The notes beneath the pieces were generated by a model. That model was not told the origin of the DNA and ran no database searches. It worked only from the letters and a program-made list of their open reading frames with translations. A program made the translations under genes and the position numbers. Source: Bacillota bacterium (GTDB lineage Bacteria; Bacillota_I; Bacilli_A; ML615J-28; CAG-313). From it: a DNA stretch of 64,000 nt. Where the stretch lies: contig CAVJDT010000003.1 of the NCBI GenBank assembly GCA_963648435.1, positions 14,582 to 78,581 of the forward strand, in the 5' to 3' direction. Below are positions 15,879 through 56,917 of the stretch, one piece after another (position 1 is the first letter of the stretch; each line of letters starts with the position of its first letter).

Positions 15879-18800
15879 TTATGCTGCTTGTTCTTCTTTA
15901 GAAACTGCGGCAGCTTTTTCTTTTTCAGCAGCTTTTTGTTTAGCTAGTTTTTCTTTTTCAAGAGCTTTTTGTTTAGCTAACTTTTCTTTTTCTTTTTCAG
16001 CAGCTTTTTGTTTAGCTAGTTTTTCTTTTTCAAGAGCTTTTTGTTTAGCTAACTTTTCTTTTTCTTTTTCAGCAGCTTTTTGTTTAGCTAGTTTTTCTTT
16101 TTCAAGAGCTTTTTGTTTAGCTAACTTTTCTTTTTCTTTTTCAGCAGCTTTTTGTTTAGCTAGTTTTTCTTTTTCAAGAGCTTTTTGTTTAGCTAACTTT
16201 TCTTTTTCTTTTTCAGCAGCTTTTTGTTTTGCAAGTTTTTCTTTTTCAAGAGCTAACGCGGCATCTTTACGAGCTTTTTCTTCAGCTGCGGCTTGTAATT
16301 TAGCTTCTTTTTCAGCTTGAGCTGCTGCCATTTCAGCTTGTTTACGAGCTTTTTCTTCTTCAACTGCTTTTTGTTTTTCAGCTTTAATTGCATCTTTTTC
16401 AGCTTGTTTACGAGCTTTTTCTTCTTCAATTAATCTTTGCTTTTCAGCATCTAATTCTTCATAGTATGCAATTGAATTCTTAATAATGTTCTTAACTAGT
16501 TTTTCATCTAATTCGCCTTTATTAACTAATCTAAACCATTGTTCGCCCTTAGGACTAGTAGCTTTAACAATTGTTCCAGGATATTCAACAATTAGAGGGA
16601 AAGCTTTTTCTTGATTACTACAGAAAGTAATACGATAATCATTATTAGTTGACATAGTAATTAAGAATAATCTCTTACCAAAGAAATATCTACTAATGTT
16701 GCCTTTTGCATTTGGAACAACTTTAATTTCTTTATTAGGAATAGTTGATGCATATTTAACAACTTTTTCATATGAAGGTTTAAATACTTTTTTCTTCTTT
16801 AATTTTTCACGAGCTTCTTTTTCTTTTTCTTTAGCTATTCTTTCAGCTTCTCTTTCAGCTTCAGCTTTTCTAAGTGAATCAAGTTCTTCTAATTCTTTAG
16901 CAACTCTTGCATCTTCTGCTGCTTTTGCTTCTTCTGCCACTTTTGCTTCTTCTGCCGCTTTTGCTTCTTCTGCTAGTCTTGCTTCTTCTGCCGCTTTTGC
17001 AATTTCAGCTTGTCTTGCTTCTTCAGCTAGTCTTGCTTCTTCTGCCGCTTTTGCTTCTTCTTCAAGTCTTGCAAGTTCAGCTTGATGGGCAGCTTCTACT
17101 GCTTTTGCTTCTTCTTCAAGTCTTGCAAGTTCAGCCGCATGATCAGCACGACGTTTTTCCTCAGCTTCTCTTAATGTTGCAAGTTCTTCTTTTTCAGCTT
17201 GACGTTCAGCTTCTACTACTTTTGCCTCTTCTTCAAGTCTTGCTACTTCTGCTTGATGAGTTTCTTCAGTAGTTTTTGCAACTTCTTCAAGTCTTGCTAC
17301 TTCTGCTTGATGAGCTTCTTTTTCAGCCTTTGCAACTTCTTCAAGTCTTGCAATTTCAGCTTGATGAGTTTCTTCAGTAGTTTTTGCAACTTCTTCAAGT
17401 CTTGCTACTTCTGCTTGATGAGCTTCTTTTTCAGCCTTTGCAACTTCTTCAAGTCTTGCAATTTCAGCTTGATGAGTTTCTTCAGTAGTTTTTGCAACTT
17501 CTTCAAGTCTTGCTACTTCTGCTTGATGAGCTTCTTTTTCAGCCTTTGCAACTTCTTCAAGTCTTGCAATTTCAGCTTGATGAGTTTCTTCAGTAGTTTT
17601 TGCAACTTCTTCAAGTCTTGCTACTTCTGCTTGATGATTAGCTTCTGCAGCTTTAGCTTCTTCAAATAGTCTTGTTACTTCTGCTTGATGATTAGCTTCT
17701 GCAGCTTTTGCTTCTTCAGATAGTCTTGCACATTCTGCTTGATGAGCTTCTTTTTCAGCTTTAGCTTCTTCAGATAATCTTGCTACTTCTGCTTGATGAT
17801 TAGCTTCTGCAGCTTTTGCTTCTTCCTCAAGTCTTGCGCATTCTGCTTGATGAACTTCTTTTTCAGTTTTAGCTTCTTCAGATAGTCTTGCAAGTTCAAC
17901 TTCATAAGCTTTTTTAGCTTCACGTAATTTTTCAAGTTCAATGTGTTCTGCAATACGCTCAGCTTCTGCTCTTCTTAAAGCATCAAGTTCAGCACGGTCT
18001 GCACGACGTTCAGCTTCAGAAGTTCTTAAATATTCAAGTTCAGCATGTTCAACGCGATGTTTTTCTTCAGCTTTTCTTAAAGCATCAAGTTCAGCTTTAC
18101 TTTCTGGGCTCATTACTTCAACTACTTTTTCAATTACTTCAGGAACATATTCAGCTTTTTCTTTTGCAAAAGCAATTTTTTCCGCATTCAATGTTGCTTT
18201 TTCATTTTCAAGTGTATTTCTTTCTTCAGTAACTTTATTTTGTTCACTAACATATTCTAATTGCATTTGAGCAAGTAAAACTTGTAAATGAGCTAATTTA
18301 TCTTGTAGTGCAACTACTCTAGCATCTAATACCGGAGGTTTTTCTTGTTCTTCAGCGATACTCTTCTTTAATTCTTCGATTTCTATTTCAAGTGCTGTTT
18401 TCATGCTTTCAATCACCTCAATTTCATGTCTTAAAGTTTCTAATTCATCGTTTTCTAAACCACATAATCCTAATTGGTCTCTTGTATAAGTAAATAATTG
18501 TTCAAGAATATGTTGTTCAGCTTTATCATATTCTTTCTTATGAGCTTCAATAAAATCTTTAATTAAACGTGTTCTTGATTCAACTGAATATTCAGGATTT
18601 AATTTATATAATTTAACCATTGATAATACATGTAAACCAGTAATTAAACCACCAAATACAATTGGAATAATCAAGAAAAATACCGATGAATTAAAGGTTG
18701 TGCTTCCTTTAACTAAAGCAACATATTTATTTCCCATATCATTCATATAGAATAATAATCCTATGAATACGAGTGCAACAACTGTATCAATTAGCATCAT

Positions 18801-19214
18801 TTCATTTTTACTAAATGTTACCACAAACTTATATAATTGATGAGATACAACTACAATACTAACAAATAATAATGAGCAAACCATCACATTAATAATCCAA
18901 TGGGTTGTCGTATAAGGATCAGTTGATCTCACAAGCATCATTAAACCATCAAATAACAACGCAGCCATTGTAGTAAAAATCGGCATATAACAAGCTACTG
19001 TTGTATAACGTAATGATGGACGATAATTACGATATTTAGTTGATAAATTTATTAAAAATAAAACTAATGAAATAATTGGTAAAACTATTGCTTTTAAAAT
19101 TATTTCAACACGAGGTACTCCACTTAATCCCCAAGGAATGCAAATTGCAAAAGCAATAGCAACGGAAATCATACTATTTATAAACATTACTTTCTTTTCT
19201 CTACTATTTAACAT
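15879..19214 (-). CDS. large membrane-anchored coiled-coil repeat protein (N-terminal polytopic domain, two tandem-repeat arrays, central globular domain)
   Basis: Residues 1-300 form ~8 TM helices. Residues ~440-740 are 18-aa ARLEEVAK(T/A)..HQAE(V/I) repeats. Residues ~770-880 are a non-repetitive domain (..ISRYFFGKRLFLITMSTNNDYRITFCSNQ..). Residues ~990-1100 are 24-aa EKEKEKLAKQKALEKEKLAKQKAA repeats. Confidence 0.6.
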   Translation of the reverse strand: MLNSREKKVMFINSMISVAIAFAICIPWGLSGVPRVEIILKAIVLPIISLVLFLINLSTKYRNYRPSLRYTTVACYMPIFTTMAALLFDGLMMLVRSTDPYTTTHWIINVMVCSLLFVSIVVVSHQLYKFVVTFSKNEMMLIDTVVALVFIGLLFYMNDMGNKYVALVKGSTTFNSSVFFLIIPIVFGGLITGLHVLSMVKLYKLNPEYSVESRTRLIKDFIEAHKKEYDKAEQHILEQLFTYTRDQLGLCGLENDELETLRHEIEVIESMKTALEIEIEELKKSIAEEQEKPPVLDARVVALQDKLAHLQVLLAQMQLEYVSEQNKVTEERNTLENEKATLNAEKIAFAKEKAEYVPEVIEKVVEVMSPESKAELDALRKAEEKHRVEHAELEYLRTSEAERRADRAELDALRRAEAERIAEHIELEKLREAKKAYEVELARLSEEAKTEKEVHQAECARLEEEAKAAEANHQAEVARLSEEAKAEKEAHQAECARLSEEAKAAEANHQAEVTRLFEEAKAAEANHQAEVARLEEVAKTTEETHQAEIARLEEVAKAEKEAHQAEVARLEEVAKTTEETHQAEIARLEEVAKAEKEAHQAEVARLEEVAKTTEETHQAEIARLEEVAKAEKEAHQAEVARLEEVAKTTEETHQAEVARLEEEAKVVEAERQAEKEELATLREAEEKRRADHAAELARLEEEAKAVEAAHQAELARLEEEAKAAEEARLAEEARQAEIAKAAEEARLAEEAKAAEEAKVAEEAKAAEDARVAKELEELDSLRKAEAEREAERIAKEKEKEAREKLKKKKVFKPSYEKVVKYASTIPNKEIKVVPNAKGNISRYFFGKRLFLITMSTNNDYRITFCSNQEKAFPLIVEYPGTIVKATSPKGEQWFRLVNKGELDEKLVKNIIKNSIAYYEELDAEKQRLIEEEKARKQAEKDAIKAEKQKAVEEEKARKQAEMAAAQAEKEAKLQAAAEEKARKDAALALEKEKLAKQKAAEKEKEKLAKQKALEKEKLAKQKAAEKEKEKLAKQKALEKEKLAKQKAAEKEKEKLAKQKALEKEKLAKQKAAEKEKEKLAKQKALEKEKLAKQKAAEKEKAAAVSKEEQAA
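15935..16230. repeat. about four tandem copies of a 72-bp intragenic repeat (encodes the C-terminal EKEKLAKQKA array)
   Basis: Unit AGCAGCTTTTTGTTTAGCTAGTTTTTCTTTTTCAAGAGCTTTTTGTTTAGCTAACTTTTCTTTTTCTTTTTC repeats near-perfectly. Confidence 0.85.
16990..17900. repeat. intragenic tandem array of 54/108-bp units (encodes the ARLEE..HQAE coiled-coil repeats)
   Basis: TTCTTCAAGTCTTGC(T/A)A(C/T)TTC(T/A)GCTTGATGAG(C/T)TTCTT..TTTGCAAC repeats ~3.5 times with near-perfect identity between ~17280 and 17640. More degenerate copies flank it. Confidence 0.8.
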
Positions 19215-33792: not shown

Positions 33793-33866
33793 GCCCCTTT
33801 AGTTCAATGGTAGAATATATCAATGGTAATGATAAGATGCTAGTTCAATTCTGGCATGGGGCACCA
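33793..33866 (+). tRNA. tRNA-Thr(GGU) candidate, 74 nt with encoded CCA
   Basis: Cloverleaf folds: acceptor GCCCCTT/ATGGGGC (one T-T mismatch); D-arm GTTC-AATGGTA-GAAT; anticodon arm TATCA-AT GGT AA-TGATA; 4-nt variable loop; T-arm GCTAG-TTCAATT-CTGGC; then ACCA. A TATAAT box lies ~12 nt upstream. Confidence 0.6.
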
Positions 33867-35127: not shown

Positions 35128-35150
35128 AAGCCAAAACTTTCACTTTTTTA
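35125..35150. terminator. bidirectional rho-independent terminator
   Basis: AGTGAAAG-ccaaaa-CTTTCACTTTTTTAA overlapping the rarA stop. Confidence 0.65.
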
Positions 35151-36813
35151 ATTTATCTAGTTCTTCTTTTGTAAGCATTAATAAACTTATTCGGATTAAT
35201 AAATCCCGATATTTTAAAAATCCTTCAATTTTATTATTAATACTCATCATCATATGGTGATTAACATAACTACATGCACTATTAAAATTATTGCCTAAAA
35301 AAATGCGATAAGCAAAATTTTTCATTAAACTATCTAAATTAATTTCACTAGTAACCCCACCAATAAATTTATATCCAATATTACCACCCGTAATTAATAA
35401 ATATTCTAATATTTGATTATATTCAAAATTATCAATTATTTTTTCAATTCCGTTTATATAAACAATCGTCTTTTTCAATTTTTCAGGACTATGCTTATTG
35501 TATTCATCAATATTATTAGTATTATTATTGTTTAATATTTCTAGTTTTTCATCCATTTTAGCTTTAACTTTTTTCAAAAAATCCAAAGTAGTACTAGACT
35601 CAATTCCTAAATTTTCAAATAAACCTAAATTATTATTTAAATCAAGCAAATAAATTTCATACTCATTAATGTTTTTTTGAAATTTGGGATAAAAAAGCAG
35701 TGATATCAAATAATTACGATATACACTACCATCATTTGATACAATTAATAAATTTTCATCACATCTAACATATTCATTTCGGTCATCTTTTCCAATCACT
35801 ATTTCCAAGTTATCAGATGATGAATGCATTAAAGCTTCTTTCATCCTTAATGAATTACCAACTAAATTATTTACTTCAATTACAATTAAATCATGATTCT
35901 TATCATATCTTATTAAAAAAGGTTCATTCAAGATTTTACAAAGTGATATTTTAAATACTTCATAATTAACTTGTTGATAAGTTTTTATAAAAATAACACT
36001 AATATGATTACAAATAATATAACTTATATCTTGATAAAAAATACTTAAATGACTTAATTCTTTTTTTATATTCATTATGTAGGCTAACATTATTTTATTT
36101 TCTTTAGTAGTATCTATAATCTCATTGCTAAGTTTTCTTAAAGATAGTGGTTTAGTAGCTTTATCTTTAATTATATAATCATCATTAAACTGTTTCAATT
36201 TACTACCTACTTTTCGTGAGTATTTAAAGGCTCTTCCAAAACATTTCTTTAAACCGTTTTTCACCATTTTAAAAAACTCAAATACAGTTTTTTTACAAAT
36301 AAAAACAATGCCAACAAAAATCACCACCACACAAAATATAATAGTACCAACTTTAGAAAACAATAAAAAGAGAAGATAAAAAAGAATACAACCAACTAGA
36401 CCTCCCCCAATCATCATATCATTACGTCCATTTTTGAAATAATCAAAATATAAAAGAATTGTATTTTTAAAACTATTTCCTTCATATTTACTTACAAAAT
36501 TATGCATGGCAAAATGACTTAAAGTAATTATTGCAAGTACAACCATGACAATTCCTAAATATCTAATGTTTTTTATCGTAAAACGATGATGCACAAACAG
36601 AAAATAAATACCTAAAGCACCTAATAATAGTAAAAAAATAAAATACCAATCTCCAAAAAATAAACGAAATGTTAACATTCCATATTTTCCAACAATTCCT
36701 AGTCTTGCAATTGAAATTAAAGAAAATAATAAACAAACAATTCCTGCAACTTCATAAACAAAAATAAATTGTTTGGTCTTTTGTTCATATTCTGATAACT
36801 TTTCTTTTGCCAT
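35140..36813 (-). CDS. FtsK/SpoIIIE-like membrane protein with degenerate Walker A/B (putative pseudo-ATPase)
   Basis: N-terminal ~220 aa have 5-6 TM. The C-terminal domain aligns to the SpoIIIE motor: IVIGKDDRNEYVRCDENLLIVSNDGSVYRN versus IALGKDISGE..PHLLVAGATGSGKS. The Walker B region reads TIVYINGIEKI in place of the hhhhDE motif. The aligned domain is ~330 aa. Confidence 0.5.
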   Translation of the reverse strand: MAKEKLSEYEQKTKQFIFVYEVAGIVCLLFSLISIARLGIVGKYGMLTFRLFFGDWYFIFLLLLGALGIYFLFVHHRFTIKNIRYLGIVMVVLAIITLSHFAMHNFVSKYEGNSFKNTILLYFDYFKNGRNDMMIGGGLVGCILFYLLFLLFSKVGTIIFCVVVIFVGIVFICKKTVFEFFKMVKNGLKKCFGRAFKYSRKVGSKLKQFNDDYIIKDKATKPLSLRKLSNEIIDTTKENKIMLAYIMNIKKELSHLSIFYQDISYIICNHISVIFIKTYQQVNYEVFKISLCKILNEPFLIRYDKNHDLIVIEVNNLVGNSLRMKEALMHSSSDNLEIVIGKDDRNEYVRCDENLLIVSNDGSVYRNYLISLLFYPKFQKNINEYEIYLLDLNNNLGLFENLGIESSTTLDFLKKVKAKMDEKLEILNNNNTNNIDEYNKHSPEKLKKTIVYINGIEKIIDNFEYNQILEYLLITGGNIGYKFIGGVTSEINLDSLMKNFAYRIFLGNNFNSACSYVNHHMMMSINNKIEGFLKYRDLLIRISLLMLTKEELDKLKK

Positions 36814-43719: not shown

Positions 43720-44397
43720 CTATTCTTTAGATATTCGTTCTAATACTTTAATATGTTCAAAATTATTTAATAATTGAAAACGGTCAAAAGAAAAACGTAA
43801 GAGTTTAGTATGGCATGGAATCTGTAAATTTTTATTTTTTTCATAATATAAATAAATAATTTCACTATCATCATATACATTTTTTAAAGGCTTTGATGAA
43901 TTAATTAAATATACTTTATTATTATCATAAATAACTAAATCAACAAGTTCCTTTGTCTTTTCTTTTTGAATTACTCCTCGTAAAAATATTTCAATATTAC
44001 TATATTCATCTTTAAGCATGTAATAGCAACATACTGCCATCCATAAATTCTTTTTTTCCAAAATTTCTTTGGTTTTAAGGGTGTGAAAATGAACTATTAT
44101 ATATTCACGCTTATAAAGAATTCGTTTTAATAAGTTATTCTTTAAATAAGCTTTTAATATCTCAAATAAGATTTTTACTTGTGATAATTCTAAGTTCAAT
44201 AAATTGATAATCATTGTCGTATCTTTAAAGTATGTTACTTCCTTATTACCAATTATTTTATTAATAAACTCATACCATTTGAAGGGATAAGTAGTCCCTA
44301 ACTCATATGTTTTTTTAATAAATTGTTCTTCAATCATTGAATAATCATAATAATTAATATTAAAAGATTGACTTATTAAATAGTTCATTATCATCAC
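43720..44397 (-). CDS. hypothetical protein
   Basis: 225-aa ORF leading the phoH-ybeY-cdd-era block; no recognisable motif. Confidence 0.4.
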   Translation of the reverse strand: MMIMNYLISQSFNINYYDYSMIEEQFIKKTYELGTTYPFKWYEFINKIIGNKEVTYFKDTTMIINLLNLELSQVKILFEILKAYLKNNLLKRILYKREYIIVHFHTLKTKEILEKKNLWMAVCCYYMLKDEYSNIEIFLRGVIQKEKTKELVDLVIYDNNKVYLINSSKPLKNVYDDSEIIYLYYEKNKNLQIPCHTKLLRFSFDRFQLLNNFEHIKVLERISKE

Positions 44398-46278: not shown

Positions 46279-47679
46279 CTAGTGTTTAGTTTTTTCTTTA
46301 TGTTTATAAGGAATTCTAAATAGTTGTTTAAACAAATCTTTAACATTAAAGGGAATAAAGGGATAAAGATAAGGCCGATTAAAACTTTTAAGACAGGCAA
46401 GATAGATAATAAGTAAAATGGTTCCACCAATAAAACCAGGTAATTTAAAAAAATATACACATAATAATAAAAATATATTAGCCATCTTATTAGCTAACGA
46501 TAACTCATAACTAGGTGTTATGTAAGACCCTATCGCCGAAATAGCCGCTAAAATAACAATTTGTTCTGTAAATAATCCCACCTTTATCGCAACATCACCA
46601 ATAATTAGGCCTGAAACCAGTCCCATTGATGTAGATAGAGCATTGGGGGTATGAATTGAAGCCATTCTAATTAATTCAATTCCAATTAAAACCGTAATCA
46701 GTTGTAAAAAAAGAATATTATGATTATGATTACTTGGAATGAATAACTGTAAGTTAGGTAAATTATAATCAGTTAAAGCATACCATAAAGGGATACAAAA
46801 GAAAGCCATAACAATTCCCAATATTCTAATTAACCTTAAATACGACCCCGCAACAACTGTTTGTCTAAATTCTTCGGCATGTTGTAAATGATCAAAAACA
46901 CTAACCGGGCCTAAAATAGCACTTGGTGAGGTATCAACAATCAAGCCAAACATTCCTTGATATAAATGAATAGCAAGCGTATCTGGTCTTTCTGTATATT
47001 TTACTAAAGGATAGGGACTATACCGATGATTAACTAATAATTCTTCAAGGGCTTTATCACTCATTGTTAATTCTTTAACTTTTATATTATCAAGTTTTTC
47101 CATAATTGTTTTTAAAATATTAGGTTTAATAACATCTTTTAAATAAACTAAAGCAACCTTAGTTTTACTAATTGTTCCAATTTCCCAAATTTTCATTCCG
47201 AGTTTACCTGTTTTAATTCTTCTTCTAATTAATCCAATATTGGTGGCAAAATTCTCAGTAAATCCGTCTCTACTTCCTCTTACTACTTTTTCACCATCTG
47301 GTTCACTAATTGAGCGAGATGGATATTGTTTAGTTTCACTGATAAACATTAAGTTTTTACTACACGTTACCACTAAATCGCCATTAAACACCGCATCACT
47401 TGCCATATTTAAATCAGTGGTAAATTCCAAATTTAAAGAAGTAAGATTATTAGCTATTACCTCTTTGATATTATTTTGATTAATTTGATCTTTTATTTTT
47501 ATAAAGCTTGTCATTAATCTTGAAATAGCAAGACTATTTGCGAGAAACGAATCATAATAAAAAGTAAAAGTTAAATTATTACCATTAGTTATTGTTCTTT
47601 TAGTAATATCAAAGGTTATATTTAGTCCTAATATTTCATCTAGAGTTTGATTGTTTGGTTCTTTATTCATTTTAGCCAC
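46279..47679 (-). CDS. spoVAF: stage V sporulation protein AF (GerA-family germination protein paralog)
   Basis: GerA-family core GSRDGFTENFATNIGLIRRRI..PYPL and C-terminal TM helices; last gene of the spoVA cluster. Confidence 0.75.
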   Translation of the reverse strand: MAKMNKEPNNQTLDEILGLNITFDITKRTITNGNNLTFTFYYDSFLANSLAISRLMTSFIKIKDQINQNNIKEVIANNLTSLNLEFTTDLNMASDAVFNGDLVVTCSKNLMFISETKQYPSRSISEPDGEKVVRGSRDGFTENFATNIGLIRRRIKTGKLGMKIWEIGTISKTKVALVYLKDVIKPNILKTIMEKLDNIKVKELTMSDKALEELLVNHRYSPYPLVKYTERPDTLAIHLYQGMFGLIVDTSPSAILGPVSVFDHLQHAEEFRQTVVAGSYLRLIRILGIVMAFFCIPLWYALTDYNLPNLQLFIPSNHNHNILFLQLITVLIGIELIRMASIHTPNALSTSMGLVSGLIIGDVAIKVGLFTEQIVILAAISAIGSYITPSYELSLANKMANIFLLLCVYFFKLPGFIGGTILLIIYLACLKSFNRPYLYPFIPFNVKDLFKQLFRIPYKHKEKTKH

Positions 47680-48022
47680 GCGGTTTAAAAATTAAAGCAA
47701 CAATAAATGATGAAAAAATGGCGGTGGAAATACCACTAGATGTTATATCAAAAATACCAGTAAAAAGTCCCATTATGCCGCTTTCTTCAGCTGCTTTTAG
47801 GGCCGCATGCGTTAAGGAATGTCCAAAAGATGAAATGGGGACAAGAGCTCCCCCACCAGCTACTTTAATTAATTTATCATATAGACCAAAACATTCTAAA
47901 AATGAACCAAGCATAACGTATATAACTGTTAAATGAATAGGAAGTAATTTAGCTAAATCCATGATTAACTGAGCAATCATACAAATTAATCCACACACTA
48001 AAAATGCTAGTAAAAACTTCAT
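47672..48022 (-). CDS. spoVAEb: stage V sporulation protein AEb
   Basis: 116 aa, multi-TM; sits between spoVAD and spoVAF as in Bacillus. Confidence 0.75.
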   Translation of the reverse strand: MKFLLAFLVCGLICMIAQLIMDLAKLLPIHLTVIYVMLGSFLECFGLYDKLIKVAGGGALVPISSFGHSLTHAALKAAEESGIMGLFTGIFDITSSGISTAIFSSFIVALIFKPRG

Positions 48023-49030
48023 TTAATCCCACCTTTCTAAACATATTGCATGACTAATGCAAGGAATAGTATCTTTTTGCGCAACCATTACTGGGTTTAA
48101 TAAAGCACCAGTTGCGAGAATTAATACCTTTTTATATGTTCCTTTTTTTAATTCTTCAACAATATAACTGAGTAGATAAGCCGTTATACAGCCACATCCA
48201 CTCCCCCCCGCAAACACTTTTTGCTTTTTAATATTATACAAATTTTTCCCCGCATCTTTATGCTTATCTTTTAATAAAATTCCATTTTCCTTGCAACATT
48301 TAATAAATAATTCACTACCATAAATTGATAAATCACCAGTAACAATAACATCATAATCATCAACAGTTTCATTAAAATTACTTAAATGATCAAAAAGTGT
48401 TTCAGCAGCACTTGGAGCCATTATGCGTCCCATATCTTGAGCATCTTTTTGATTTACATCAATAATCTTACCAATAGTTCCGGATTTTACACAAATACGT
48501 GTAGGTGTACTTCCTAATAAACATATCCCCGCCGCGGTAGTAGTGAAAGTCATAGAAGTAGGCTTTTGTCCCCCATATTCTGTTGGATAACGAAATTGTC
48601 TTTCACTAGTCGCATTATGACTAGAACTTGCAACTAAAACCTTCGCATTTTTGATACTATCAACATAAATACTTCCTAAAATCATATTTTCTGTAATTGT
48701 TGAACATGCGGCAAAAGTCCCCAAAAAAGGAATAAAAGTATTACGCATTGCATAAGTACTAGCCACAATTTGATTATTTAAATCTCCCGAAAACATAACA
48801 TCAATATCATTTGGACATAATTTTTCTTTTTGACAAATTATTTCAAAAGCTTTTTTAACTAGTGCAATTTCAGCTTTTTCCCAAGTTTTTTCATTACAAT
48901 AATTGTTATCATAACTATAATCAAAATAATTACCATAAGGACCATTTTTTTCTTTTGGCCCTGTCACGACTGCGGTATTTTCAACAAAAACACTATCAAA
49001 ACTTAAACTATTTCGACCAACTTTTTTCAT
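48023..49030 (-). CDS. spoVAD: stage V sporulation protein AD (thiolase-like fold, DPA uptake)
   Basis: 335 aa; condensing-enzyme-like fold (..GGSGCGC..), matching SpoVAD length and synteny. Confidence 0.8.
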   Translation of the reverse strand: MKKVGRNSLSFDSVFVENTAVVTGPKEKNGPYGNYFDYSYDNNYCNEKTWEKAEIALVKKAFEIICQKEKLCPNDIDVMFSGDLNNQIVASTYAMRNTFIPFLGTFAACSTITENMILGSIYVDSIKNAKVLVASSSHNATSERQFRYPTEYGGQKPTSMTFTTTAAGICLLGSTPTRICVKSGTIGKIIDVNQKDAQDMGRIMAPSAAETLFDHLSNFNETVDDYDVIVTGDLSIYGSELFIKCCKENGILLKDKHKDAGKNLYNIKKQKVFAGGSGCGCITAYLLSYIVEELKKGTYKKVLILATGALLNPVMVAQKDTIPCISHAICLERWD

Positions 49031-49031
49031 A

Positions 49032-49484
49032 CTATCTAATTAAATAAATAATGGTGGCACTAATAAATGAACTAACAACTCCCGCAACAATTACCGTCCC
49101 TGCTAATTTAAACATATTACTCATAATACCAAGAACGACCCCTTCACTTTTCCCTTCTAAAGCAGCTGAAGTCATTGAATTTGCAAAACCAGTAATTGGA
49201 ATAAAAGTTCCCGCCCCCGCAAGTTGTCCAATTTTATCAAATACCCCAATTCCTGTTAAAATGGAAGTTATAACAACAATACTCATTGACATCAACCCAT
49301 TTGCCATTAATTCTTCAATTTTAAACACCATAACATATAAAGTTATCAGTCCTTCTGCGATAATTCCAATCACTCCTCCGATTAAAAACGCAAATAGCAA
49401 ATTTTTTATAATTGGTCTTTTTACAGGTTTTTCTTTAATAATTGATTGATATTTTTGTAATCTCTTATTTTCCATATTAATCAC
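49032..49484 (-). CDS. spoVAC: stage V sporulation protein AC
   Basis: 150 aa, 4 TM; KNLLFAFLIGGVIGIIAEGL typical of SpoVAC. Confidence 0.8.
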   Translation of the reverse strand: MINMENKRLQKYQSIIKEKPVKRPIIKNLLFAFLIGGVIGIIAEGLITLYVMVFKIEELMANGLMSMSIVVITSILTGIGVFDKIGQLAGAGTFIPITGFANSMTSAALEGKSEGVVLGIMSNMFKLAGTVIVAGVVSSFISATIIYLIR

Positions 49485-49577: not shown

Positions 49578-50903
49578 TTATTTAACAGTTTGAATTTCAC
49601 CAGCTTTAGTTAAAGCAATTTTAGTAATAACTGGTCCAATTAATTCATAAAACAATGTTGCACAAAGGACAACCGCCGTAATGGTCGAAGCCATATTAGC
49701 TAAATAATTATAACCACTTTCATTAACCACTTTTAAGCTTTCCGTTGCAAAACTTCTAAATGTACTTGATGAACTTCGGGCCATACCAATTGCCACCCCT
49801 GCTTGAGGAAGCAAAGTTAAACCTAAATATTTTTTGACAGTTCCTCCAGTATGTGCCATCGTACAACCAAGTCTTGCCCCAAAATATTTACCAAGTGATC
49901 TAGCAAGTAAATAAACAGCACAAATACCAATAACTGTCCAACTTCCCATAACACTAAAATCTAGTTCAGCTCCAGATAAAATAAAGAATAACATAAATAA
50001 AGCCGGAGTCCAACGTTCAATACCATCTAAAATGTTTATAGCATCTCTTTCCATATTACAGAAAATTGCACCAATCATCATACAAGTAAGTAATGATGAT
50101 AGTTCCATATTGAATTTTTCTGCGAATAATTCACAGAGTCCTACTCCTAAAATTACTGATGCAAGCATGCAAATTAAACGATTAGCTCGAGATTTAAAAA
50201 ATTTCATCGCAAAAGTTAAAATAAAACCAAGGGTTGCCCCAATTGCAAGTGACAAAAAAATCTCACAAAGTGGCATTAAAAGAATATTTTTAATACTGAT
50301 GGTCGCACCATCCACCCCCGCATATTGTTTTGCTAGAACTTGAGCTACAGAAAAAGAAATAGAAAATAAGATTAAGCCAATTGCATCATCAAAGGCAACT
50401 ACTGGTAACAAAATATCCGTAACAGGACCTCTTGCTTTATATTGTTTAACAACCATTAAGGTTGCGGCAGGAGCCGTGGCGGTAGCGATAGCACCAAGAG
50501 TTAAAATTAATGGTAAATTAGCTTCTAAATTTCCAACAATTAAACAAGTAATTACTAAAAATACATCAACAGCCACTAAAGCCATACACGATTGCATGAT
50601 TGTAATTGTAATAACCCCTTTACCAATCTTTTTAATACTTGATAGTTTAAATTCACTACCAATCGAAAAAGCAATAAAACCTAAAGCTAAATCAACAATA
50701 ATTCCAAAAGCCGAAACCATTTCTTTATTAATGACTCCATCAAGTTTGGAATTAAATAAACTAAATAAATAAGGTCCTAATAAAATACCAACAATCAAAT
50801 AAGCTGTAACATTAGGTAAATGAACTAACTTTATAAGTCGATTGGAAATAAGTCCTGCAACTAAAGCAATACCTATTCCTAATAATATATACGCTGAGGT
50901 CAT
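49578..50903 (-). CDS. CPA2-family monovalent cation:proton antiporter, membrane domain only (no fused RCK/KTN domain)
   Basis: 441 aa, ~12 TM; N-terminal ILLGIGIALVAGLI..VTAYLIVGILLGPY typical of KefB/NapA-like exchangers. Confidence 0.75.
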   Translation of the reverse strand: MTSAYILLGIGIALVAGLISNRLIKLVHLPNVTAYLIVGILLGPYLFSLFNSKLDGVINKEMVSAFGIIVDLALGFIAFSIGSEFKLSSIKKIGKGVITITIMQSCMALVAVDVFLVITCLIVGNLEANLPLILTLGAIATATAPAATLMVVKQYKARGPVTDILLPVVAFDDAIGLILFSISFSVAQVLAKQYAGVDGATISIKNILLMPLCEIFLSLAIGATLGFILTFAMKFFKSRANRLICMLASVILGVGLCELFAEKFNMELSSLLTCMMIGAIFCNMERDAINILDGIERWTPALFMLFFILSGAELDFSVMGSWTVIGICAVYLLARSLGKYFGARLGCTMAHTGGTVKKYLGLTLLPQAGVAIGMARSSSSTFRSFATESLKVVNESGYNYLANMASTITAVVLCATLFYELIGPVITKIALTKAGEIQTVK

Positions 50904-51235
50904 TATTCGTCAAGTCCTTCCAAATAACTTATCGGTAATGAATACATAAATCCTTTACCTTTAATTCCTCCTACTACTTCTTTGACAAGTTCACTTAATT
51001 TTTTAATTTCTTCATCTTTCTTTACAACCACAAAAATCATTGGACGGGCAACTTCTTTGCCTTCAACAACTTTAGTAAGACCACCAAAATAAGGTTCAGG
51101 TTCTATTGAATCCATTAATGCATGCCTAATACTTCTAGTTGAAAGCACAGTTCCATGATAATTATTGTCAGAAAACTTCTTTAATATTGAAGACACATAA
51201 ACATCTTCTGTTAATACTACAATAAATAATTGCAT
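50903..51235 (-). CDS. PII-like small signalling protein (DarA/PstA- or DUF190-like), translationally coupled to the antiporter
   Basis: 110 aa. The pattern MQLFIVVLTEDVYVSSILKKF..GTVLSTRS..MIFVVVKKDEEI..L matches the PII beta-alpha-beta fold (compare DarA KLIVAVVQDQD..GYRATKL). Its TAA stop overlaps the downstream ATG (TAATG). Confidence 0.45.
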   Translation of the reverse strand: MQLFIVVLTEDVYVSSILKKFSDNNYHGTVLSTRSIRHALMDSIEPEPYFGGLTKVVEGKEVARPMIFVVVKKDEEIKKLSELVKEVVGGIKGKGFMYSLPISYLEGLDE

Positions 51236-51309
51236 ATAATACCTCCATAAATTCTAAACTATTATACCACTTTTGATTTGCAAATGTTCAAAAAAAGCAT
51301 TAGGAAACC

Positions 51310-53784
51310 CTAATACTTTTTTGCTTTTTTAATAATTCGAAGGGTATTTAAGATTGCAAGCAAACATAAACCTACATCTGATAATACTCCAATTAACATA
51401 CCATATGAACCAAGGAGTTGGAAGGTACTTAAAACAAGCACTCCTACTTTAACTAATATAGCCACAATTATATTTTCATAAATAATTCTCATGGTTTTTT
51501 TAGAAATAGCAATAGCATCAATTATCTTACCAATATCATCATTCATAATAACAACATCTGCTGCGGTTTTCGCAATATCACTACCTTTAGCCCCCATTGC
51601 AATTCCAACCGTTGCCATTTTTAAGCTTGGAGTATCATTAATCCCATCACCAACATAAACAATTGATTTATTATTTTTTAATTTTTCACTTAAAACATCA
51701 AGTTTTTCATTTGGTAATAACTTAGCATAAGCTTCATCAACCCCTAATTTCTTTTTAACGCTACTAACAATTTTTTCACTATCGCCACTTAATATCGTAG
51801 TAGTAATATTTTGAGAGCGTAAATATTCAATAGTTTCTTTAGCTCGGGGTTTTAGTTCATCAATGACAACAATACTACCAACAAATTTTCCATCAATCGC
51901 AATATAAACAACCGATCCAGGACATGTTTCTAAAACATAGTCAATATTGTTTTCTTTCATTAAACGTTCATTACCAATTAAAACCTTCTTGTTTTCAAAA
52001 TTTGCAGATAAACCGAACCCCGCAAGTTCTTGAAGATTTGAAACTCTATCTTGATTAATATCCCCATGATATGCCGATACAATGGATTTTGCGATTGGGT
52101 GATTTGAAAATGATTCAATGGTTGCGGTTAACTCTAATAATTCATCATAAGTATAACCATCAAATACATTAATTTCATCAACCACAAAGTTACCCTCAGA
52201 TAATGTTCCAGTTTTATCAAAAACAAATGCTTTTGTTTTGCTTAAATATTCTAAATAATTTCCACCTTTAACTAAAATACCATCACTTGAAGCTCGGCCA
52301 ATCCCACTAAAGAAACCAAGAGGAACTGAAATTACAAGGGCACAAGGACAAGATACAGTTAAGAAAACTAAAACCGTATTAATTGTTTCCGCATTAGAAA
52401 TACCTAAGGCAAATTTCATTACAAGGCCTGTAACAACAGCTGATGCAAGAATAATTGGAGTATAGACTCTTGCAAATTTTGTAATAAACTTTTCAGTTTT
52501 TGATTTTTTATTACTTGCTTCATCAATTAATTTAACCACCTTACTAATTGTGGAATCACTTTCAACAGTTGTAACTCTAATTTTAATTACTTTAGTTAAA
52601 TTAATACAACCTGATAATACTTCATCACCAATATTAATTTCACTAGGCAAAGATTCACCAGTCAAACACTTAGTATCAAGACTGGTACTACCATCAATTA
52701 TAACCCCATCAAGAGGGATTTTTTCTCCAACCTTAACAACAATGATATCACCAATATGAACATCTTTAAGTTCTACTACATCACCATTTTCAAGAGTTGC
52801 CTTATCAACTTTTAATTCCATAAGACCTTGAATTGATTTTGTAGATTTATCAATGGCACGAGATTGAATTTTTTCACCAATACGATATAAAAGAATAACC
52901 ATAATCGCTTCAATTGGTTCTTTGTTAATAAATGCTCCAACTGAGGCGATTAACATTAGAAAGTTTTCATCAAATATTTGTCCATGAATAATATTTTTGA
53001 ATGATTCATATAGTACTTTATATCCAATTAAGAAATAAATAACCCCAAATATAATATACATATAGAAACTTTCATCTTTACCAATAATCCAGTATAATGA
53101 AGATGCCACAAAAAGTGTAACTGATATAATAAATAAGATAAAACTTACTTTAGATTTTTTTGATTTTTCTGTCTTATTCTTTAAAACAATAGCTTCACTT
53201 TCAATTTTTTTAACTTCCTTACATACCGTTTCATATACTTCAACATTATTACGGTGGGTAATAATAATTTTTTTATTAACAAAGTTAACTTTAGCATCAA
53301 TAATATCATTACATTTATTTAAAGCTCTTTCAACTTTTAAGGCACAATTAGGACAGTCAATGTTTTCAAACATATACTCATCAACCGCCATATTTGGTCC
53401 TAGCTCTTTATTTTTAGAATTTATGTGTTCATGGTCATGGTCGTGATCATGTTCACAGCAGTCACAATGCCCATGGTCATGTTCATGATCGTGGTCACAA
53501 TGTTCATGGTCGTGATCACAATGTTCATGCTCATGATGCTTTGCTTTTTTGGAAGTTACAACTTTACCATTTTGATGAAACGGGCATTTACTTAAGTTTA
53601 TAACTGTTGCTAAAATCATCTTAACTTCATCTTCTGTTAAATTTCTACGGCCTTCAATTGATACTTTTTTACGGTCATAATTAATATTTACTTCTTTAAT
53701 ATACTCGATTTTTTGCAAGTTTGTGGCTAATATTTTTGCACAATCCGGGCATTTAAGTTCTTTAACTTTAAATGTATACTGCAT
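51310..53784 (-). CDS. cadA: Cd2+/Zn2+-type heavy-metal P1B-ATPase
   Basis: Two HMA domains (CPDCAKIL, CPNCALKV) and a His/Cys/Asp-rich stretch. Also carries the CPC transmembrane motif, DKTGTLS and GDGINDTPSL. Confidence 0.9.
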   Translation of the reverse strand: MQYTFKVKELKCPDCAKILATNLQKIEYIKEVNINYDRKKVSIEGRRNLTEDEVKMILATVINLSKCPFHQNGKVVTSKKAKHHEHEHCDHDHEHCDHDHEHDHGHCDCCEHDHDHDHEHINSKNKELGPNMAVDEYMFENIDCPNCALKVERALNKCNDIIDAKVNFVNKKIIITHRNNVEVYETVCKEVKKIESEAIVLKNKTEKSKKSKVSFILFIISVTLFVASSLYWIIGKDESFYMYIIFGVIYFLIGYKVLYESFKNIIHGQIFDENFLMLIASVGAFINKEPIEAIMVILLYRIGEKIQSRAIDKSTKSIQGLMELKVDKATLENGDVVELKDVHIGDIIVVKVGEKIPLDGVIIDGSTSLDTKCLTGESLPSEINIGDEVLSGCINLTKVIKIRVTTVESDSTISKVVKLIDEASNKKSKTEKFITKFARVYTPIILASAVVTGLVMKFALGISNAETINTVLVFLTVSCPCALVISVPLGFFSGIGRASSDGILVKGGNYLEYLSKTKAFVFDKTGTLSEGNFVVDEINVFDGYTYDELLELTATIESFSNHPIAKSIVSAYHGDINQDRVSNLQELAGFGLSANFENKKVLIGNERLMKENNIDYVLETCPGSVVYIAIDGKFVGSIVVIDELKPRAKETIEYLRSQNITTTILSGDSEKIVSSVKKKLGVDEAYAKLLPNEKLDVLSEKLKNNKSIVYVGDGINDTPSLKMATVGIAMGAKGSDIAKTAADVVIMNDDIGKIIDAIAISKKTMRIIYENIIVAILVKVGVLVLSTFQLLGSYGMLIGVLSDVGLCLLAILNTLRIIKKAKKY

Positions 53785-53793
53785 AACTTACTC

Positions 53794-54093
53794 CTATAAA
53801 TGTTCTAAATGTTCAATAGTAATTTCTAGTATTTGTAAAACATGTTCATCAACAATTGAATAAAATATCATCTTGCCATCTCTTCTTGTTTTAACAAGTC
53901 GAGCATGACGTAATATTCGTAATTGATATGAAACAGCCGTTTGGCTCATGTCAACATCTTTTGCAATATCTTGTACACATTTTTCCCCTTTTAATAATGA
54001 TGTAATAATTTTTACTCGTGAAAAATCAGATAAATTCTTATAAAACTCTGATAATTCATAAATATCATTTTCATTTAGTGTGTTTTTATTCAT
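53794..54093 (-). CDS. cadC: ArsR/SmtB-family metalloregulator (CadC-like)
   Basis: HTH ..VQDIAKDVDMSQTAVSYQLRILRHARLV; start set at MNKNTLNE; directly upstream of cadA. Confidence 0.8.
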   Translation of the reverse strand: MNKNTLNENDIYELSEFYKNLSDFSRVKIITSLLKGEKCVQDIAKDVDMSQTAVSYQLRILRHARLVKTRRDGKMIFYSIVDEHVLQILEITIEHLEHL

Positions 54094-54166
54094 GTTACAC
54101 CTCACATATGAATATATACACATATATTATACATAATTATATAAATAAATCAACACATATGCTGTA

Positions 54167-54712
54167 TTATTTAGTAATCGCAATTTTTTCACGCATTTCT
54201 TTAAGCATTCTACTAACTTTGCTTTGACTTATGGAAAGTTCCTTTGCTATTTCAACTTGACTATACCTGTTTTCTAAACGAAGTTTTAATAGTTCTTTTT
54301 CCATAGCTGTAAAATTAAACGCATCTAAATTTAAATAATTTCCCTCTATATCATTCATATCTTCTTTTAGTTCTACTTGATAATATTCTTTCGCAACTAA
54401 ACTATCAGTTTGATCAATTGTTTTTTCTTTTGATGAAGTTAAATTTTTATAGTATTTACTAGTTTTAATTAAACTGCGTTTCTCAAGTTCATCTTTGATA
54501 GCCCCAATAATATAGTAAGTAGCATAAGTTGAAAACTTCGCTCCTTTCGTAACATCATACTTTTTCGCCGCGTTAAATAGTCCCATCATTCCAGCTTGTA
54601 CTAAATCATCATAATCAAATGGACTTACCTTAAAACGCCTAGCGATTTTATAAACTAAACGTTGATTAGATTCAACTAAAAACTCATATTGACTAGTATT
54701 CACCTTGTTCAT
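54167..54712 (-). CDS. sigF: compact sporulation-type sigma factor (regions 2 and 4 only) in the sigF position
   Basis: Region 2 (DLVQAGMMGLFNAAKKYD..FSTYATYYIIGAIKDEL) and a region 4 HTH (SQVEIAKELSISQSKVSRM) are present. At 181 aa it is far shorter than the 255-aa B. subtilis SigF. It follows spoIIAA-spoIIAB and dacF. Confidence 0.55.
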   Translation of the reverse strand: MNKVNTSQYEFLVESNQRLVYKIARRFKVSPFDYDDLVQAGMMGLFNAAKKYDVTKGAKFSTYATYYIIGAIKDELEKRSLIKTSKYYKNLTSSKEKTIDQTDSLVAKEYYQVELKEDMNDIEGNYLNLDAFNFTAMEKELLKLRLENRYSQVEIAKELSISQSKVSRMLKEMREKIAITK

Positions 54713-55127
54713 GATATTTTTTTACCATTAATACCTTAGTGCCCTCATTAACACGTGATGTAACATCTAGTTTATCAGTGAATACTTCCATTATTGTAAA
54801 GCCAAGGCCTGCCCTTTCTTCATCTATTTTTGTACTAAATAATGGTTCTTTTGCTTTTTCAATATCTTTTATGCCAATTCCATAGTCAACTACTTCAATA
54901 TAAATATTTTCTAAATCAAAGCGAAGATTTAATTCTACTTTTTTTGAACTATCATTCAAATATCCGTGAACAATCGCATTAGTTACAGCTTCTGATACAA
55001 TTGTTTTAATTTCATTAACTGTGCTAATTGGTAAATTTAATTCAACCAAAAAAGCCGTGGTAATGGTTCTAGCAAGTAAAACATTTTCATTACGTGCTAA
55101 AAAGCTTGTTTTTAATTCATTATACAT
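54693..55127 (-). CDS. spoIIAB: anti-sigma F factor (serine kinase, HATPase_c)
   Basis: ..SEAVTNAIVHGY..GLGF; 145 aa after the start is moved to MYNELKT, which overlaps the spoIIAA stop by 1 nt. Confidence 0.8.
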   Translation of the reverse strand: MYNELKTSFLARNENVLLARTITTAFLVELNLPISTVNEIKTIVSEAVTNAIVHGYLNDSSKKVELNLRFDLENIYIEVVDYGIGIKDIEKAKEPLFSTKIDEERAGLGFTIMEVFTDKLDVTSRVNEGTKVLMVKKYHEQGEY

Positions 55128-55477
55128 TATGCTACCTCCAAATAATTTTCCGCTTCTTGTTCGTTTGAAGCAATTATACAAATTTTTTTAAGGCCTGACA
55201 AAGCCACAATCCTACTTATTATTTCATTCATTGAACAAATTACAATTTTTCCATTTCTTTTTCTAATTTGTGAAAATCGACCAATAATAAACCCAATTCC
55301 ACTACTATCCATAAAAGTTACTTTCTCAAAATTGATAATTAAATGTTTAATCATATATTTATCGATAATTTCACTTACCCGAATCTTTAAATTTTCGGTT
55401 ACTGATTGATCAAGTTCACCATTTAGTCTAATGAATAAGCGATTTTTTCTAATTGCCATTTGCATATTTAATGCCAT
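55127..55477 (-). CDS. spoIIAA: anti-sigma F factor antagonist (STAS domain)
   Basis: 116 aa; phosphorylatable Ser in DSSGIGFIIGR. Confidence 0.8.
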   Translation of the reverse strand: MALNMQMAIRKNRLFIRLNGELDQSVTENLKIRVSEIIDKYMIKHLIINFEKVTFMDSSGIGFIIGRFSQIRKRNGKIVICSMNEIISRIVALSGLKKICIIASNEQEAENYLEVA

Positions 55478-55655
55478 TTTTACACCCCCTTAAATATTGT
55501 ACCAAACAATATACCAAGATTCAATAACAATTATTTAATCTATTATTTTATGACATAATTCGAACCATCATACTTTGTCAAATAACATAAAAAATAAAAA
55601 AACAAACCAACTTTATCAATTAGTTTGTTACATTTAACTTAAAATTAAAATAAAA

Positions 55656-56825
55656 TCAAAAAATTTGTTTAATTATTAACCTTAAGACATTAATAAAGGA
55701 ATTTTTCTTTGGCTTTTTTTCTAGTTCTAATGGTACTTCACCTATTAATTTATCATCAACATATACTTTCAATTTACCAATGTTATATTGATTTAAATTA
55801 TTAATTTTTTCAATATCATATTCAATTTCAATTCTTGGATTATTTAGTTTAGTATTTTTCTTTATAACTTTAACAACACTATTACTTGTAATAATATTAT
55901 AAGTTGAAGGGTCAAGTAATATATTCTTATCCTTTTTTACTTCTGTATTTTTAGGAACAATAACCATTTTCTCATATGTTGCAAACCCATAATTTAAAAG
56001 TGCTAAAGTATCTTCACTACGGTGAGGCACCGTATCAACATTCATCACTACTGAAATTAAACGCATACCGTCTTTTTTCTTGGTACAAGTCAAACAGTAA
56101 CCTGCACTTTCGGTCCATCCAGTCTTTAAACCATCAACTCCTTCGGCATGTTTAATGAGTTTATTGGTATTAACAAGCCAAAAAGGTTTATCAGTATCTT
56201 CTCTTACATAATCTTCATATTTACTAGTATATGGAATAATTTCATCTTCATATTTAATTAATAGATTACGAGCAATCATGGCCATATCATAACTTGAACT
56301 ATAATGATTATTTGTAGGAAGACCGGTAACATTACTAAAATGGGTATTTTTAAGTCCTAATTTTTTTACTTCATCATTCATTTGAGCCACAAAAAACTCT
56401 TCACTTCCACTTATTCCTTCCGAAAGAGATGTTGCGGCATCGTTTGCAGATGCAATAACCATGGCTTTAAATAAGTCTTCAACCTTCATTTTTTCGCCAA
56501 CTTCTAAAAATATCTGGGTACCACCTTTACTTTTGGCATTTTCACTAGTTGATAACATTTGATTTTTTTCAATTCTTTTAGAAGCTATGGCATCTAACAC
56601 TAGTTTCATAGTCATTATTTTAGTCATACTAGCTGGTTCATATCTTTCATGAGCATTATATTCATATAAAACCGTACCTGTTTCTACTTCTACTAAAATA
56701 GCACTTTTGGCATATTTAACAAGTTCTTCATCTGCTTTTATATGTTTTATATTTTTTATAAATAATAAGCCAACAACAACTAATCCAAATATCATATTTT
56801 TAATAATAAATTTTATTTTTCTCAT
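55656..56825 (-). CDS. dacF: D-alanyl-D-alanine carboxypeptidase (S11 family), sporulation-associated
   Basis: Signal peptide; SMTK (SxxK), SAN and KTG boxes. Located immediately upstream of spoIIAA, as Bacillus dacF is. Confidence 0.8.
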   Translation of the reverse strand: MRKIKFIIKNMIFGLVVVGLLFIKNIKHIKADEELVKYAKSAILVEVETGTVLYEYNAHERYEPASMTKIMTMKLVLDAIASKRIEKNQMLSTSENAKSKGGTQIFLEVGEKMKVEDLFKAMVIASANDAATSLSEGISGSEEFFVAQMNDEVKKLGLKNTHFSNVTGLPTNNHYSSSYDMAMIARNLLIKYEDEIIPYTSKYEDYVREDTDKPFWLVNTNKLIKHAEGVDGLKTGWTESAGYCLTCTKKKDGMRLISVVMNVDTVPHRSEDTLALLNYGFATYEKMVIVPKNTEVKKDKNILLDPSTYNIITSNSVVKVIKKNTKLNNPRIEIEYDIEKINNLNQYNIGKLKVYVDDKLIGEVPLELEKKPKKNSFINVLRLIIKQIF

Positions 56826-56917
56826 ATCATTACCTCAACAAATTATATGAGAAATCTTTTAAAATAATGCAAAAAAAACACCAAATTAGGGTTGTTCTAT
56901 AAGGCTTTTACGTGAAA

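Follow-up and report, generated by a model that had tools for sequence, protein, structure and literature searches.

Can a sigma factor that has lost its middle domain still be sigma-F, and if so, how is it held by its anti-sigma factor? The question is raised by a 64,000-nucleotide stretch of an uncultured Bacillota bacterium of the gut (assembly GCA_963648435.1, contig CAVJDT010000003.1, positions 14,582 to 78,581 of the forward strand; order ML615J-28, family CAG-313 of GTDB), hereafter the window, to which all coordinates refer. It carries a dacF-spoIIAA-spoIIAB operon whose last gene encodes a sigma factor of 181 amino acids (aa). We suggest, with a probability of roughly 80%, that this is the true and functional sigF of an uncultured Bacilli lineage, in which sigma3 has been eroded by internal deletions, leaving sigma2, a tether of about 55 aa, and sigma4. 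Sigma-F, together with SpoIIAB and SpoIIAA, makes up the textbook switch that sets cell fate in endospore formation. The orthologs described here pose the question of how else SpoIIAB can hold sigma-F.

The sigF Locus

The listing of open reading frames (ORFs) contains four minus-strand genes within 54167-56825, at the positions that a sequence-only reading of this DNA had given for them.

55656-56825, minus strand: dacF-like S11 D-Ala-D-Ala carboxypeptidase, 389 aa (Pfam Peptidase_S11, 6e-76, and PBP5_C)
55127-55477, minus strand: spoIIAA, STAS anti-anti-sigma factor, 116 aa, with the phosphorylatable Ser58 in FMDSSG
54693-55127, minus strand: spoIIAB, GHKL anti-sigma-F factor and serine kinase, 144 aa from the homologous ATG, with Arg20, the N-box, and the G-boxes intact
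54167-54712, minus strand: sigF ortholog with sigma2, an eroded sigma3, and sigma4, 181 aa

The spoIIAA stop and the spoIIAB start share one nucleotide (TAATG), and the ATG of the sigma gene at 54712 lies 20 nucleotides inside spoIIAB, whose stop codon is at 54693-54695. Judging from these overlaps, the three genes are translationally coupled, and the sigma start overlaps spoIIAB in all loci examined. The mechanical ORF of spoIIAB reaches back to a TTG at 55181, and the 144 aa are counted from the homologous ATG. A stop codon bounds the sigma ORF upstream, and thus 181 aa is its maximum length. The dacF gene likewise lies upstream of spoIIAA in the related loci L001-L006, L009-L012, L015, and L018.

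SpoIIAB passes the NCBIfam equivalog model of anti-sigma-F factors (TIGR01925, 165.6 bits against a cutoff of 135; RsbW, only 48 bits) and has both the GHKL kinase boxes and Arg20. SpoIIAA scores 111.5 bits with TIGR02886, 3 bits under the cutoff of 114.75, and passes the superfamily model TIGR00377 (90.3 bits against 53.45). The best PDB match of the sigma factor itself is SigF of G. stearothermophilus (1l0o_C, E 1.4e-14), with residues 11-102 paired with SigF residues 32-123 and residues 138-175 with 203-240. When the short family was aligned by hhalign with a canonical SigF set, comprising 15 relatives of about 240-260 aa and including P0088 (TIGR02885, 341 bits against a cutoff of 321, passed), the probability was 100%, with an E-value of 1e-39 and 35% identity. 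The gene is the third of spoIIAA-spoIIAB-sigF, with dacF upstream and spoVA downstream, an arrangement that recurs in L001-L019. Its assignment to sigF in the sequence-only reading is thus upheld by the SpoIIAB equivalog, by the best structural match, and by the downstream order spoVAC-spoVAD-spoVAEb-spoVAF, as in Bacillus.

The curated models of the sigma factor are not reached. With the SigF equivalog TIGR02885 the window protein obtains 81.3 bits in two stretches (cutoff 321.45), and its relatives obtain 80-102 bits, compared with 341 for the canonical control P0088. The best specific models are those of SigB/F/G, SigF, and FliA; the first of these, TIGR02980, yields 90.4 bits, below its cutoff of 234.35, and the middle of the profile is unmatched. 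The sole NCBIfam model passed is the generic TIGR02937 ("sigma70-ECF" superfamily, 99.5 bits).

Every compact sigma factor whose context was looked up (P0023, P0045, P0048, P0052, P0053, P0055, and P0057) follows spoIIAA-spoIIAB, and spoVA comes next, except in L004-L006 (P0023) and in short contigs of P0057. From this position, all these compact sigma factors are SigF orthologs. Literature searches returned no description of a SigF without sigma3. The window protein retains orthology to SigF but has neither the equivalog score nor the sigma3 domain.

Erosion of the sigma3 Domain

The sigma factor can be divided as follows.

54473-54712, minus strand: residues 1-80, sigma2 (regions 2.1-2.4), by Pfam r2; aligns to residues 32-101 of 1l0o_C
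54377-54472, minus strand: residues 81-112, vestige of sigma3, with the first helix LIKTSKYYKNL and the third-helix remnant DQTDSLVA
54308-54376, minus strand: residues 113-135, conserved acidic segment LKEDMNDIEGNYLN, which aligns to the start of SigF region 3.2
54170-54307, minus strand: residues 136-181, sigma4 (regions 4.1-4.2, helix-turn-helix SQSKVSR), by Pfam r4

Pfam places Sigma70_r2 at residues 12-80 (71 bits) and Sigma70_r4 at residues 138-176 (26.5 bits). By these boundaries, the two domains of the window protein are separated by about 50-57 aa, in agreement with the spacer of about 55 aa claimed from the sequence alone. The only signal of Sigma70_r3 was rejected as region 3: it reaches 15 bits, below the cutoff of 25.3, and falls on residues 153-176, which are the helix-turn-helix of region 4. 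The sigma2-sigma3-sigma4 architecture of group 3 is not found in the window protein, which also lacks the N-terminal 20 or so aa of canonical SigF.

The hhalign comparison places the losses within the protein. Residues 7-99 correspond to sigma2 and the first sigma3 helix (LIKTSKYYKNL against IKVSRSIKEL; helix vestige at about 81-99), followed by a gap of about 22 aa where canonical SigF has the end of sigma3 helix 1 and helix 2. Further on, TDSLVAKEYY (residues 102-111) pairs with the third sigma3 helix and QVELKEDMNDIEGN with the start of region 3.2; beyond this, about 20 aa are missing again, which takes away what remains of region 3.2 and the beginning of region 4.1, and sigma4 follows.

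In an AlphaFold2 model based on the family alignment, sigma2 and sigma4 are confident, with a predicted local distance difference test (pLDDT) of 79-93; residues 1-80 reach 83-93 and residues 136-181 reach 82-91. Residues 80-135 have a pLDDT of 48-63 and only two short helices. The model of the 206-aa sister ortholog P0048 has three helices in this part (88-97, 104-110, and 115-125; pLDDT 77-85), that is, a compact sigma3. A Foldseek search of the window model against PDB gave generic matches to sigma holoenzymes with a template modeling score of about 0.35; as the domains are placed arbitrarily in the model, we took from it family membership only.

Conservation within the family follows the same division. 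The mean frequency of the top residue is 0.79 in sigma2 and falls to its lowest value, 0.36 with 30% gaps, in residues 81-112. In residues 113-135 conservation matches that of sigma4 (0.64 vs 0.66), and every family member has this segment, including the 153-aa forms. We consider it to be probably the "finger" or tether of region 3.2, given its alignment.

Taken together, alignments and structure prediction indicate that sigma3 is absent as a folded domain and that vestiges of only two of its helices are left. The sequence-only reading had called region 3 unrecognizable; this is correct for the domain, by Pfam, AlphaFold2, and hhalign alike, but not for remnants of the first and third helices and the start of region 3.2, which persist. 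A region 3 that is present but diverged is likewise not what was found, as there are remnants and no domain, and in the 153-aa relatives residues 81-112 are absent, leaving not even remnants.

Relatives and the Length Series

Two other assemblies, NCBI GCA_963648405.1 and one from Logan, encode a protein identical to the window sigma factor, and still others have versions of 91-96% identity. When 5.8 billion proteins were searched, with clusters from NCBI, ENA, JGI, and Logan, the family comprised about 27 cluster representatives of 153-206 aa and 47-100% identity, none of them with a Pfam r3 annotation; the two 206-aa representatives P0011 and P0012 differ by a C-terminal extension only. Among genome records, the closest matches come from "uncultured Mollicutes bacterium UMGS75" (94%), a "Bacilli bacterium" metagenome-assembled genome (MAG; 91%), and a MAG labelled Staphylococcaceae (69%). 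UMGS75 is assigned in GTDB to o__ML615J-28, f__CAG-313, g__UMGS75 (supplement of PMC10868615). The more distant P0074 (222 aa) is labelled only [quoted passage not shown], and the other nine of the ten clusters looked up have no source name.

Related genomes had been proposed as the place to look for the same short form; it is present there, and none of the relatives restores a product of about 250 aa. The claim that the gene is not a misannotated truncation also stands, given the overlap of its start with spoIIAB, the N-terminus MNKVNTSQ, and a short length that is kept in relatives down to 50% identity.

When 1.84 billion representatives were searched exhaustively with a profile, the relatives fell into a series of lengths. 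The anchor distance spans the stretch between the ..IK that closes region 2.4 and the helix-turn-helix of region 4.2 (SQSxVSR).

Canonical relatives: about 235-260 aa, anchor distance 130-138 aa
Compact forms keeping sigma3: about 195-210 aa, anchor distance 100-120 aa
Clade of the window: 177-185 aa, anchor distance 85-94 aa (89 in the window sigma factor)
Shortest forms: 150-169 aa, anchor distance 58-78 aa

The forms of about 195-210 aa keep the compact sigma3 motif ..ELA....S.ENV..A (alignment A2), and in the 153-aa relatives the spacer between Pfam r2 and r4 shrinks to about 25 aa. The short sigma-F of the window is one step of a graded erosion across a radiation of reduced-genome Bacilli.

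P0045 (168 aa; L015, 5001-5507) keeps sigma3-like helices (TSKELSEELLINKEDLILEL) and has no counterpart of the region-3.2-like segment of the other short forms. This different route of shortening suggests independent deletions in different sublineages.

It is tempting to see in this series (about 250, 200, 181, and 153 aa) a developmental sigma factor of group 3 being converted stepwise, under selection, into a two-domain factor resembling the extracytoplasmic function (ECF) type, with the SpoIIAB/SpoIIAA switch unchanged. We propose this tentatively, at somewhat less than even odds.

Selection and Alternative Explanations

Ratios of nonsynonymous to synonymous substitution rates (dN/dS) were calculated by the Nei-Gojobori method against the two closest relatives, L001 and L002 (dS 0.3-1.1). 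At a dS of 0.5-1.1 they are 0.04-0.06 for the whole sigma gene and 0.065-0.08 for residues 81-135 alone, compared with 0.02-0.07 for spoIIAB, 0.013-0.015 for spoIIAA, and 0.06-0.08 for dacF. All four genes are under strong purifying selection, and this excludes a decaying pseudogene. The sigma family also stays in one length class down to 47% identity. A phage origin was also considered and rejected, the best phage matches being at most 31% identical.

The alternative that survives best takes the module for a relic or a repurposed switch, in a lineage that forms no endospores, with an operon that is nearing loss or that runs a small sigma-B-like regulon outside sporulation. We regard this as unlikely, but there are observations that weigh against a functional sporulation sigF and fit such a history. 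The sigma factor diverges faster than its partners: between the window and L004, which represents the 153-aa clade, it is 50% identical, whereas SpoIIAA and SpoIIAB are 80-81% and DacF 71% identical, and this could reflect a relaxed or changed function; one would tentatively expect SigF to rank with the better-conserved products of the operon. Whether ML615J-28 sporulates is disputed. About 25 sporulation genes are found in about 90% of CAG-313 genomes, but spoIIE, spoIID, spoIVFB, and yqfD are reported as reduced or absent in the order, being lacking or often lacking (PMC10868615), and the machine-learning predictor SpoMAG assigns a sporulation probability of 0% to MAGs of this order. The stepwise deletion of sigma3 across the radiation also counts in favor of this alternative.

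On the other side, the dN/dS values of 0.01-0.08 on sigF, spoIIAA, spoIIAB, and dacF exclude outright decay, though not repurposing, and the operon is linked to intact, spore-specific spoVAC, spoVAD, spoVAEb, and spoVAF, which specify the dipicolinate channel. Further, the reported absences should be treated with caution, since such surveys rely on annotation and the window sigF itself fails the curated SigF model; absences based on KEGG Orthology (KO) or hidden Markov models (HMMs) are unreliable in fast-evolving genomes.

A second explanation is that the original sigF was displaced, after spoIIAB, by an unrelated sigma factor of ECF type (group 4). The two-domain architecture and the fact that TIGR02937 is the only NCBIfam model passed would be in line with it. 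However, the bona fide SigF P0088 also passes TIGR02937 (124 bits), so that passing this model says nothing either way; among the specific models, those of SigB/F/G and SigF score best, and the best PDB match is SigF. The hhalign alignment to canonical SigF extends through the vestigial sigma3 and region-3.2 segments, intermediates of about 200 aa that keep sigma3 occupy the same locus, and the neighboring regulator is a GHKL kinase anti-sigma factor and not one of ECF type. Displacement is therefore very improbable.

Finally, an artefact of assembly, frameshift, or gene calling has next to no probability: apart from the fact that the genomes are MAGs, and as such error-prone in principle, nothing speaks for it, and it is ruled out by the presence of the same protein in independent assemblies, joined by more than 25 distinct cluster representatives of 153-185 aa, by the upstream stop and the overlapping starts, and by deletions that preserve the reading frame and lie between well-aligned stretches.

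Partners and a Possible Mechanism

The reading as a functional but eroded sigF leaves the partner proteins canonical. Residues 1-137 of SpoIIAB align without gaps to 1l0o_A and 1th8_A (E 1e-34), retaining Arg20 in helix 1, LLARt, the N-box EAVTNAIVHGY, DyGiGI, and GLGFTIME, and the protein is collinear in all lineages examined. SpoIIAA aligns without gaps to 1auz and 1th8_B (E 2e-24). Two positions before Arg20, residue 18 of SpoIIAB is Phe in Geobacillus and in the lineages that have retained sigma3 in SigF, and Leu in the window and in L002, L003, L004, and L015, where the middle of the sigma factor is eroded; with nine sequences, this is anecdotal.

The only structure of SpoIIAB with SigF, PDB 1L0O, contains some fifty residues of SigF, which correspond to domain 3. 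The docking domain known from structure is thus the very part that is eroded here, and the anti-sigma binding geometry, which the sequence-only reading had singled out as a question, is an apt one. Genetic data point to other parts of the sigma factor as well. Decatur and Losick in 1996 reportedly mapped contacts of SpoIIAB to regions 2.1, 3.1, and 4.1. Substitutions in region 2.2 impair the binding of SpoIIAB to sigma-F, and E156K in sigma-G relieves control by SpoIIAB.

We propose that the sigma factor would bind core RNA polymerase in the manner of ECF factors, with sigma2 on the clamp helices reading the -10 element and sigma4 on the flap reading the -35 element. The acidic segment LKEDxNDIEGNYLN (residues 113-127) may thread through the active-site cleft and the RNA exit channel, forming a shortened finger of region 3.2. 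Partner switching would be kept, SpoIIAB sequestering the sigma factor and phosphorylating SpoIIAA on Ser58. With sigma3 lost as the canonical docking domain, SpoIIAB would have to grip the sigma factor mainly through sigma2 and sigma4, plausibly at the genetically defined contacts in regions 2.1/2.2 and 4.1; where the vestigial acidic helix (D..D..V) persists, in the forms of 177-185 aa, it may add to this hold. The role of the window sigma factor in the forespore, suggested by orthology, is uncertain.

If the stepwise conversion into an ECF-like factor is true, SpoIIAB can regulate sigma-F through a sigma3-free interface, unlike the sole interface seen structurally, and sigma factors can evolve viably from group 3 towards a group-4-like form by losing sigma3. 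It may also tie in with the reported scarcity of the SpoIIE phosphatase in ML615J-28. The series of 250-, 200-, 181-, and 153-aa proteins provides a natural deletion set for the roles of sigma3 and region 3.2 in a group-3 sigma factor and illustrates how ECF-like architectures can arise. Further, given the failure of the curated models, sporulation predictors based on gene content will fail to count sigF in ML615J-28 and in orders related to it.

Downstream Genes and Regulatory Sites

Downstream of sigF, the window contains the following features.

49578-54123, minus strand: ion cassette between sigF and spoVA, with an arsR-type repressor, a heavy-metal P-type ATPase, a 110-aa ORF, and a Na+/H+ exchanger
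49032-49484, minus strand: spoVAC (Pfam SpoVAC_SpoVAEB)
48023-49030, minus strand: spoVAD (Pfam SpoVAD)
47672-48022, minus strand: spoVAEb (Pfam SpoVAC_SpoVAEB)
46279-47679, minus strand: spoVAF/GerA-family gene (Pfam GerA), followed by the gene of RNase J

On related contigs, the sigma gene is followed by spoVAC-spoVAD-spoVAEb-(spoVAF)-RNase J in the same order as in the window. In L009, L011, L015, and L018 the cassette is absent and sigF directly abuts spoVAC; therefore the metal/cation cassette of the window is an insertion into a Bacillus-like dacF-spoIIA-spoVA order. The P-type ATPase of the cassette has a long His/Cys/Asp-rich N-terminal stretch, and the 110-aa ORF has no Pfam match. 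A different cation ATPase lies at the sigF/spoVA junction in L013 and L017, and the junction seems to be a recurrent site of insertion for ion-transport genes.

Candidate regulatory sites were found around the operon.

56830-56880, minus strand: GCATT-16-CATATAAT, resembling forespore-type promoters, upstream of dacF; kept in L001 and L002
55596-55629, minus strand: AT-rich hairpin with a T-run (AACAAAC...GTTTGTT TTTTT) after dacF, read from the sequence
55496-55524, minus strand: promoter-like TTGAAT-17-TACAAT with TG, about 20 nucleotides upstream of spoIIAA; kept in L001-L004 and L015

The hairpin and T-run are kept in L001-L003 and probably form the dacF terminator; having few G-C pairs, they were not flagged in the terminator scan. 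The promoter of spoIIA in B. subtilis is of sigma-H type; unlike it, the site upstream of spoIIAA resembles the sigma-A type. In this region of 26%-GC DNA, promoter-like sites are not enriched over shuffled sequences (34 vs 26.6 +/- 4.2), and thus only the conservation of the candidate spoIIAA promoter speaks for it; the dacF site likewise has no statistical support in this AT-rich DNA. Perfect Spo0A boxes occur in two of the nine spoIIAA upstream regions, against 0.6 expected, and motif comparison revealed no motif common to the spoVAC upstream regions.

Other Genes of the Window

The remaining window is an ordinary low-GC Bacilli chromosome, with genes for PolC, AlaRS, GAPDH, Era, RecO, YbeY, PhoH, and the ATPase and platform of a competence pilus. 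Its sole Rfam matches are a T-box leader before alaS (15685-15878, minus strand; 114 bits) and a single tRNA gene (33793-33863, plus strand).

Several ORFs have no Pfam match. The largest, of 1111 aa (15879-19214, minus strand), encodes several N-terminal transmembrane segments and hundreds of residues of Ala/Glu/Lys-rich, near-perfect tandem repeats, for instance HQAEVARLEEVAKTTEET and KEKLAKQKAAEKE, which account for the odd composition at 16-18 kb (GC 0.356, AT skew -0.42). Others are a 557-aa ORF (35140-36813, minus strand; at E<=1e-6) and, at E<=1e-3, ORFs of 222 aa (6594-7262) and 187 aa (2161-2724, minus strand). A 225-aa ORF (43720-44397, minus strand), also without a Pfam match, lies directly upstream of phoH-ybeY...era-recO, a position that in B. 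subtilis is that of the sporulation gene yqfD. This ORF could be a diverged or shortened yqfD, a gene reported as reduced or absent in ML615J-28.

Comparison with Known Systems

Canonical SigF of Bacillus, Geobacillus, and Clostridia (1L0O, 1TH8, 1AUZ; TIGR02885) shares with the window the order dacF-spoIIAA-spoIIAB-sigF followed by spoVA, homologous sigma2 and sigma4, and partners that are collinear with the proteins of the crystal structures. It differs in length, 243-255 aa against 181 aa, the window protein being without the N-terminal 20 or so aa, the sigma3 core, and half of region 3.2/4.1. The compact SigF orthologs of about 195-210 aa from sister lineages of uncultured Bacilli (for instance P0048, P0053, P0055, P0052, and P0057) resemble the window protein in synteny, in the N-terminal loss, and in scoring below the curated SigF cutoffs, but they keep a three-helix sigma3, with an anchor distance of 100-120 aa compared with 89 aa in the window.

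The SigH/ComX family offers another case of a sporulation-linked sigma factor with an ECF-like structure. It lies between groups 3 and 4 and is more divergent in non-sporulating Firmicutes. Unlike the sigma factor described here, it belongs to a different orthologous family and locus and has no partner switching of SpoIIAB type. ComX, of about 160 aa, is much shorter in non-sporulating lineages.

In the definition of the ECF factors of group 4, domains 2 and 4 are linked by fewer than 50 residues. Like them, the window protein and its 153-aa relatives have sigma2 and sigma4 with a short spacer, which at about 25 aa falls below this limit in the relatives and at about 50-57 aa lies at or just above it in the window protein. 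By this analogy, a two-domain sigma factor with a short spacer is a known working architecture. Neither an ECF sequence affinity nor a cognate ECF-type anti-sigma factor was found for the window protein: its affinity is to SigB/F/G of group 3, and the regulators encoded next to it, a GHKL kinase with a STAS antagonist, are not anti-sigma factors of the ZAS or RsiW type. Unlike in ECF factors, the origin of the window form by deletion from a three-domain sigma factor can be traced.

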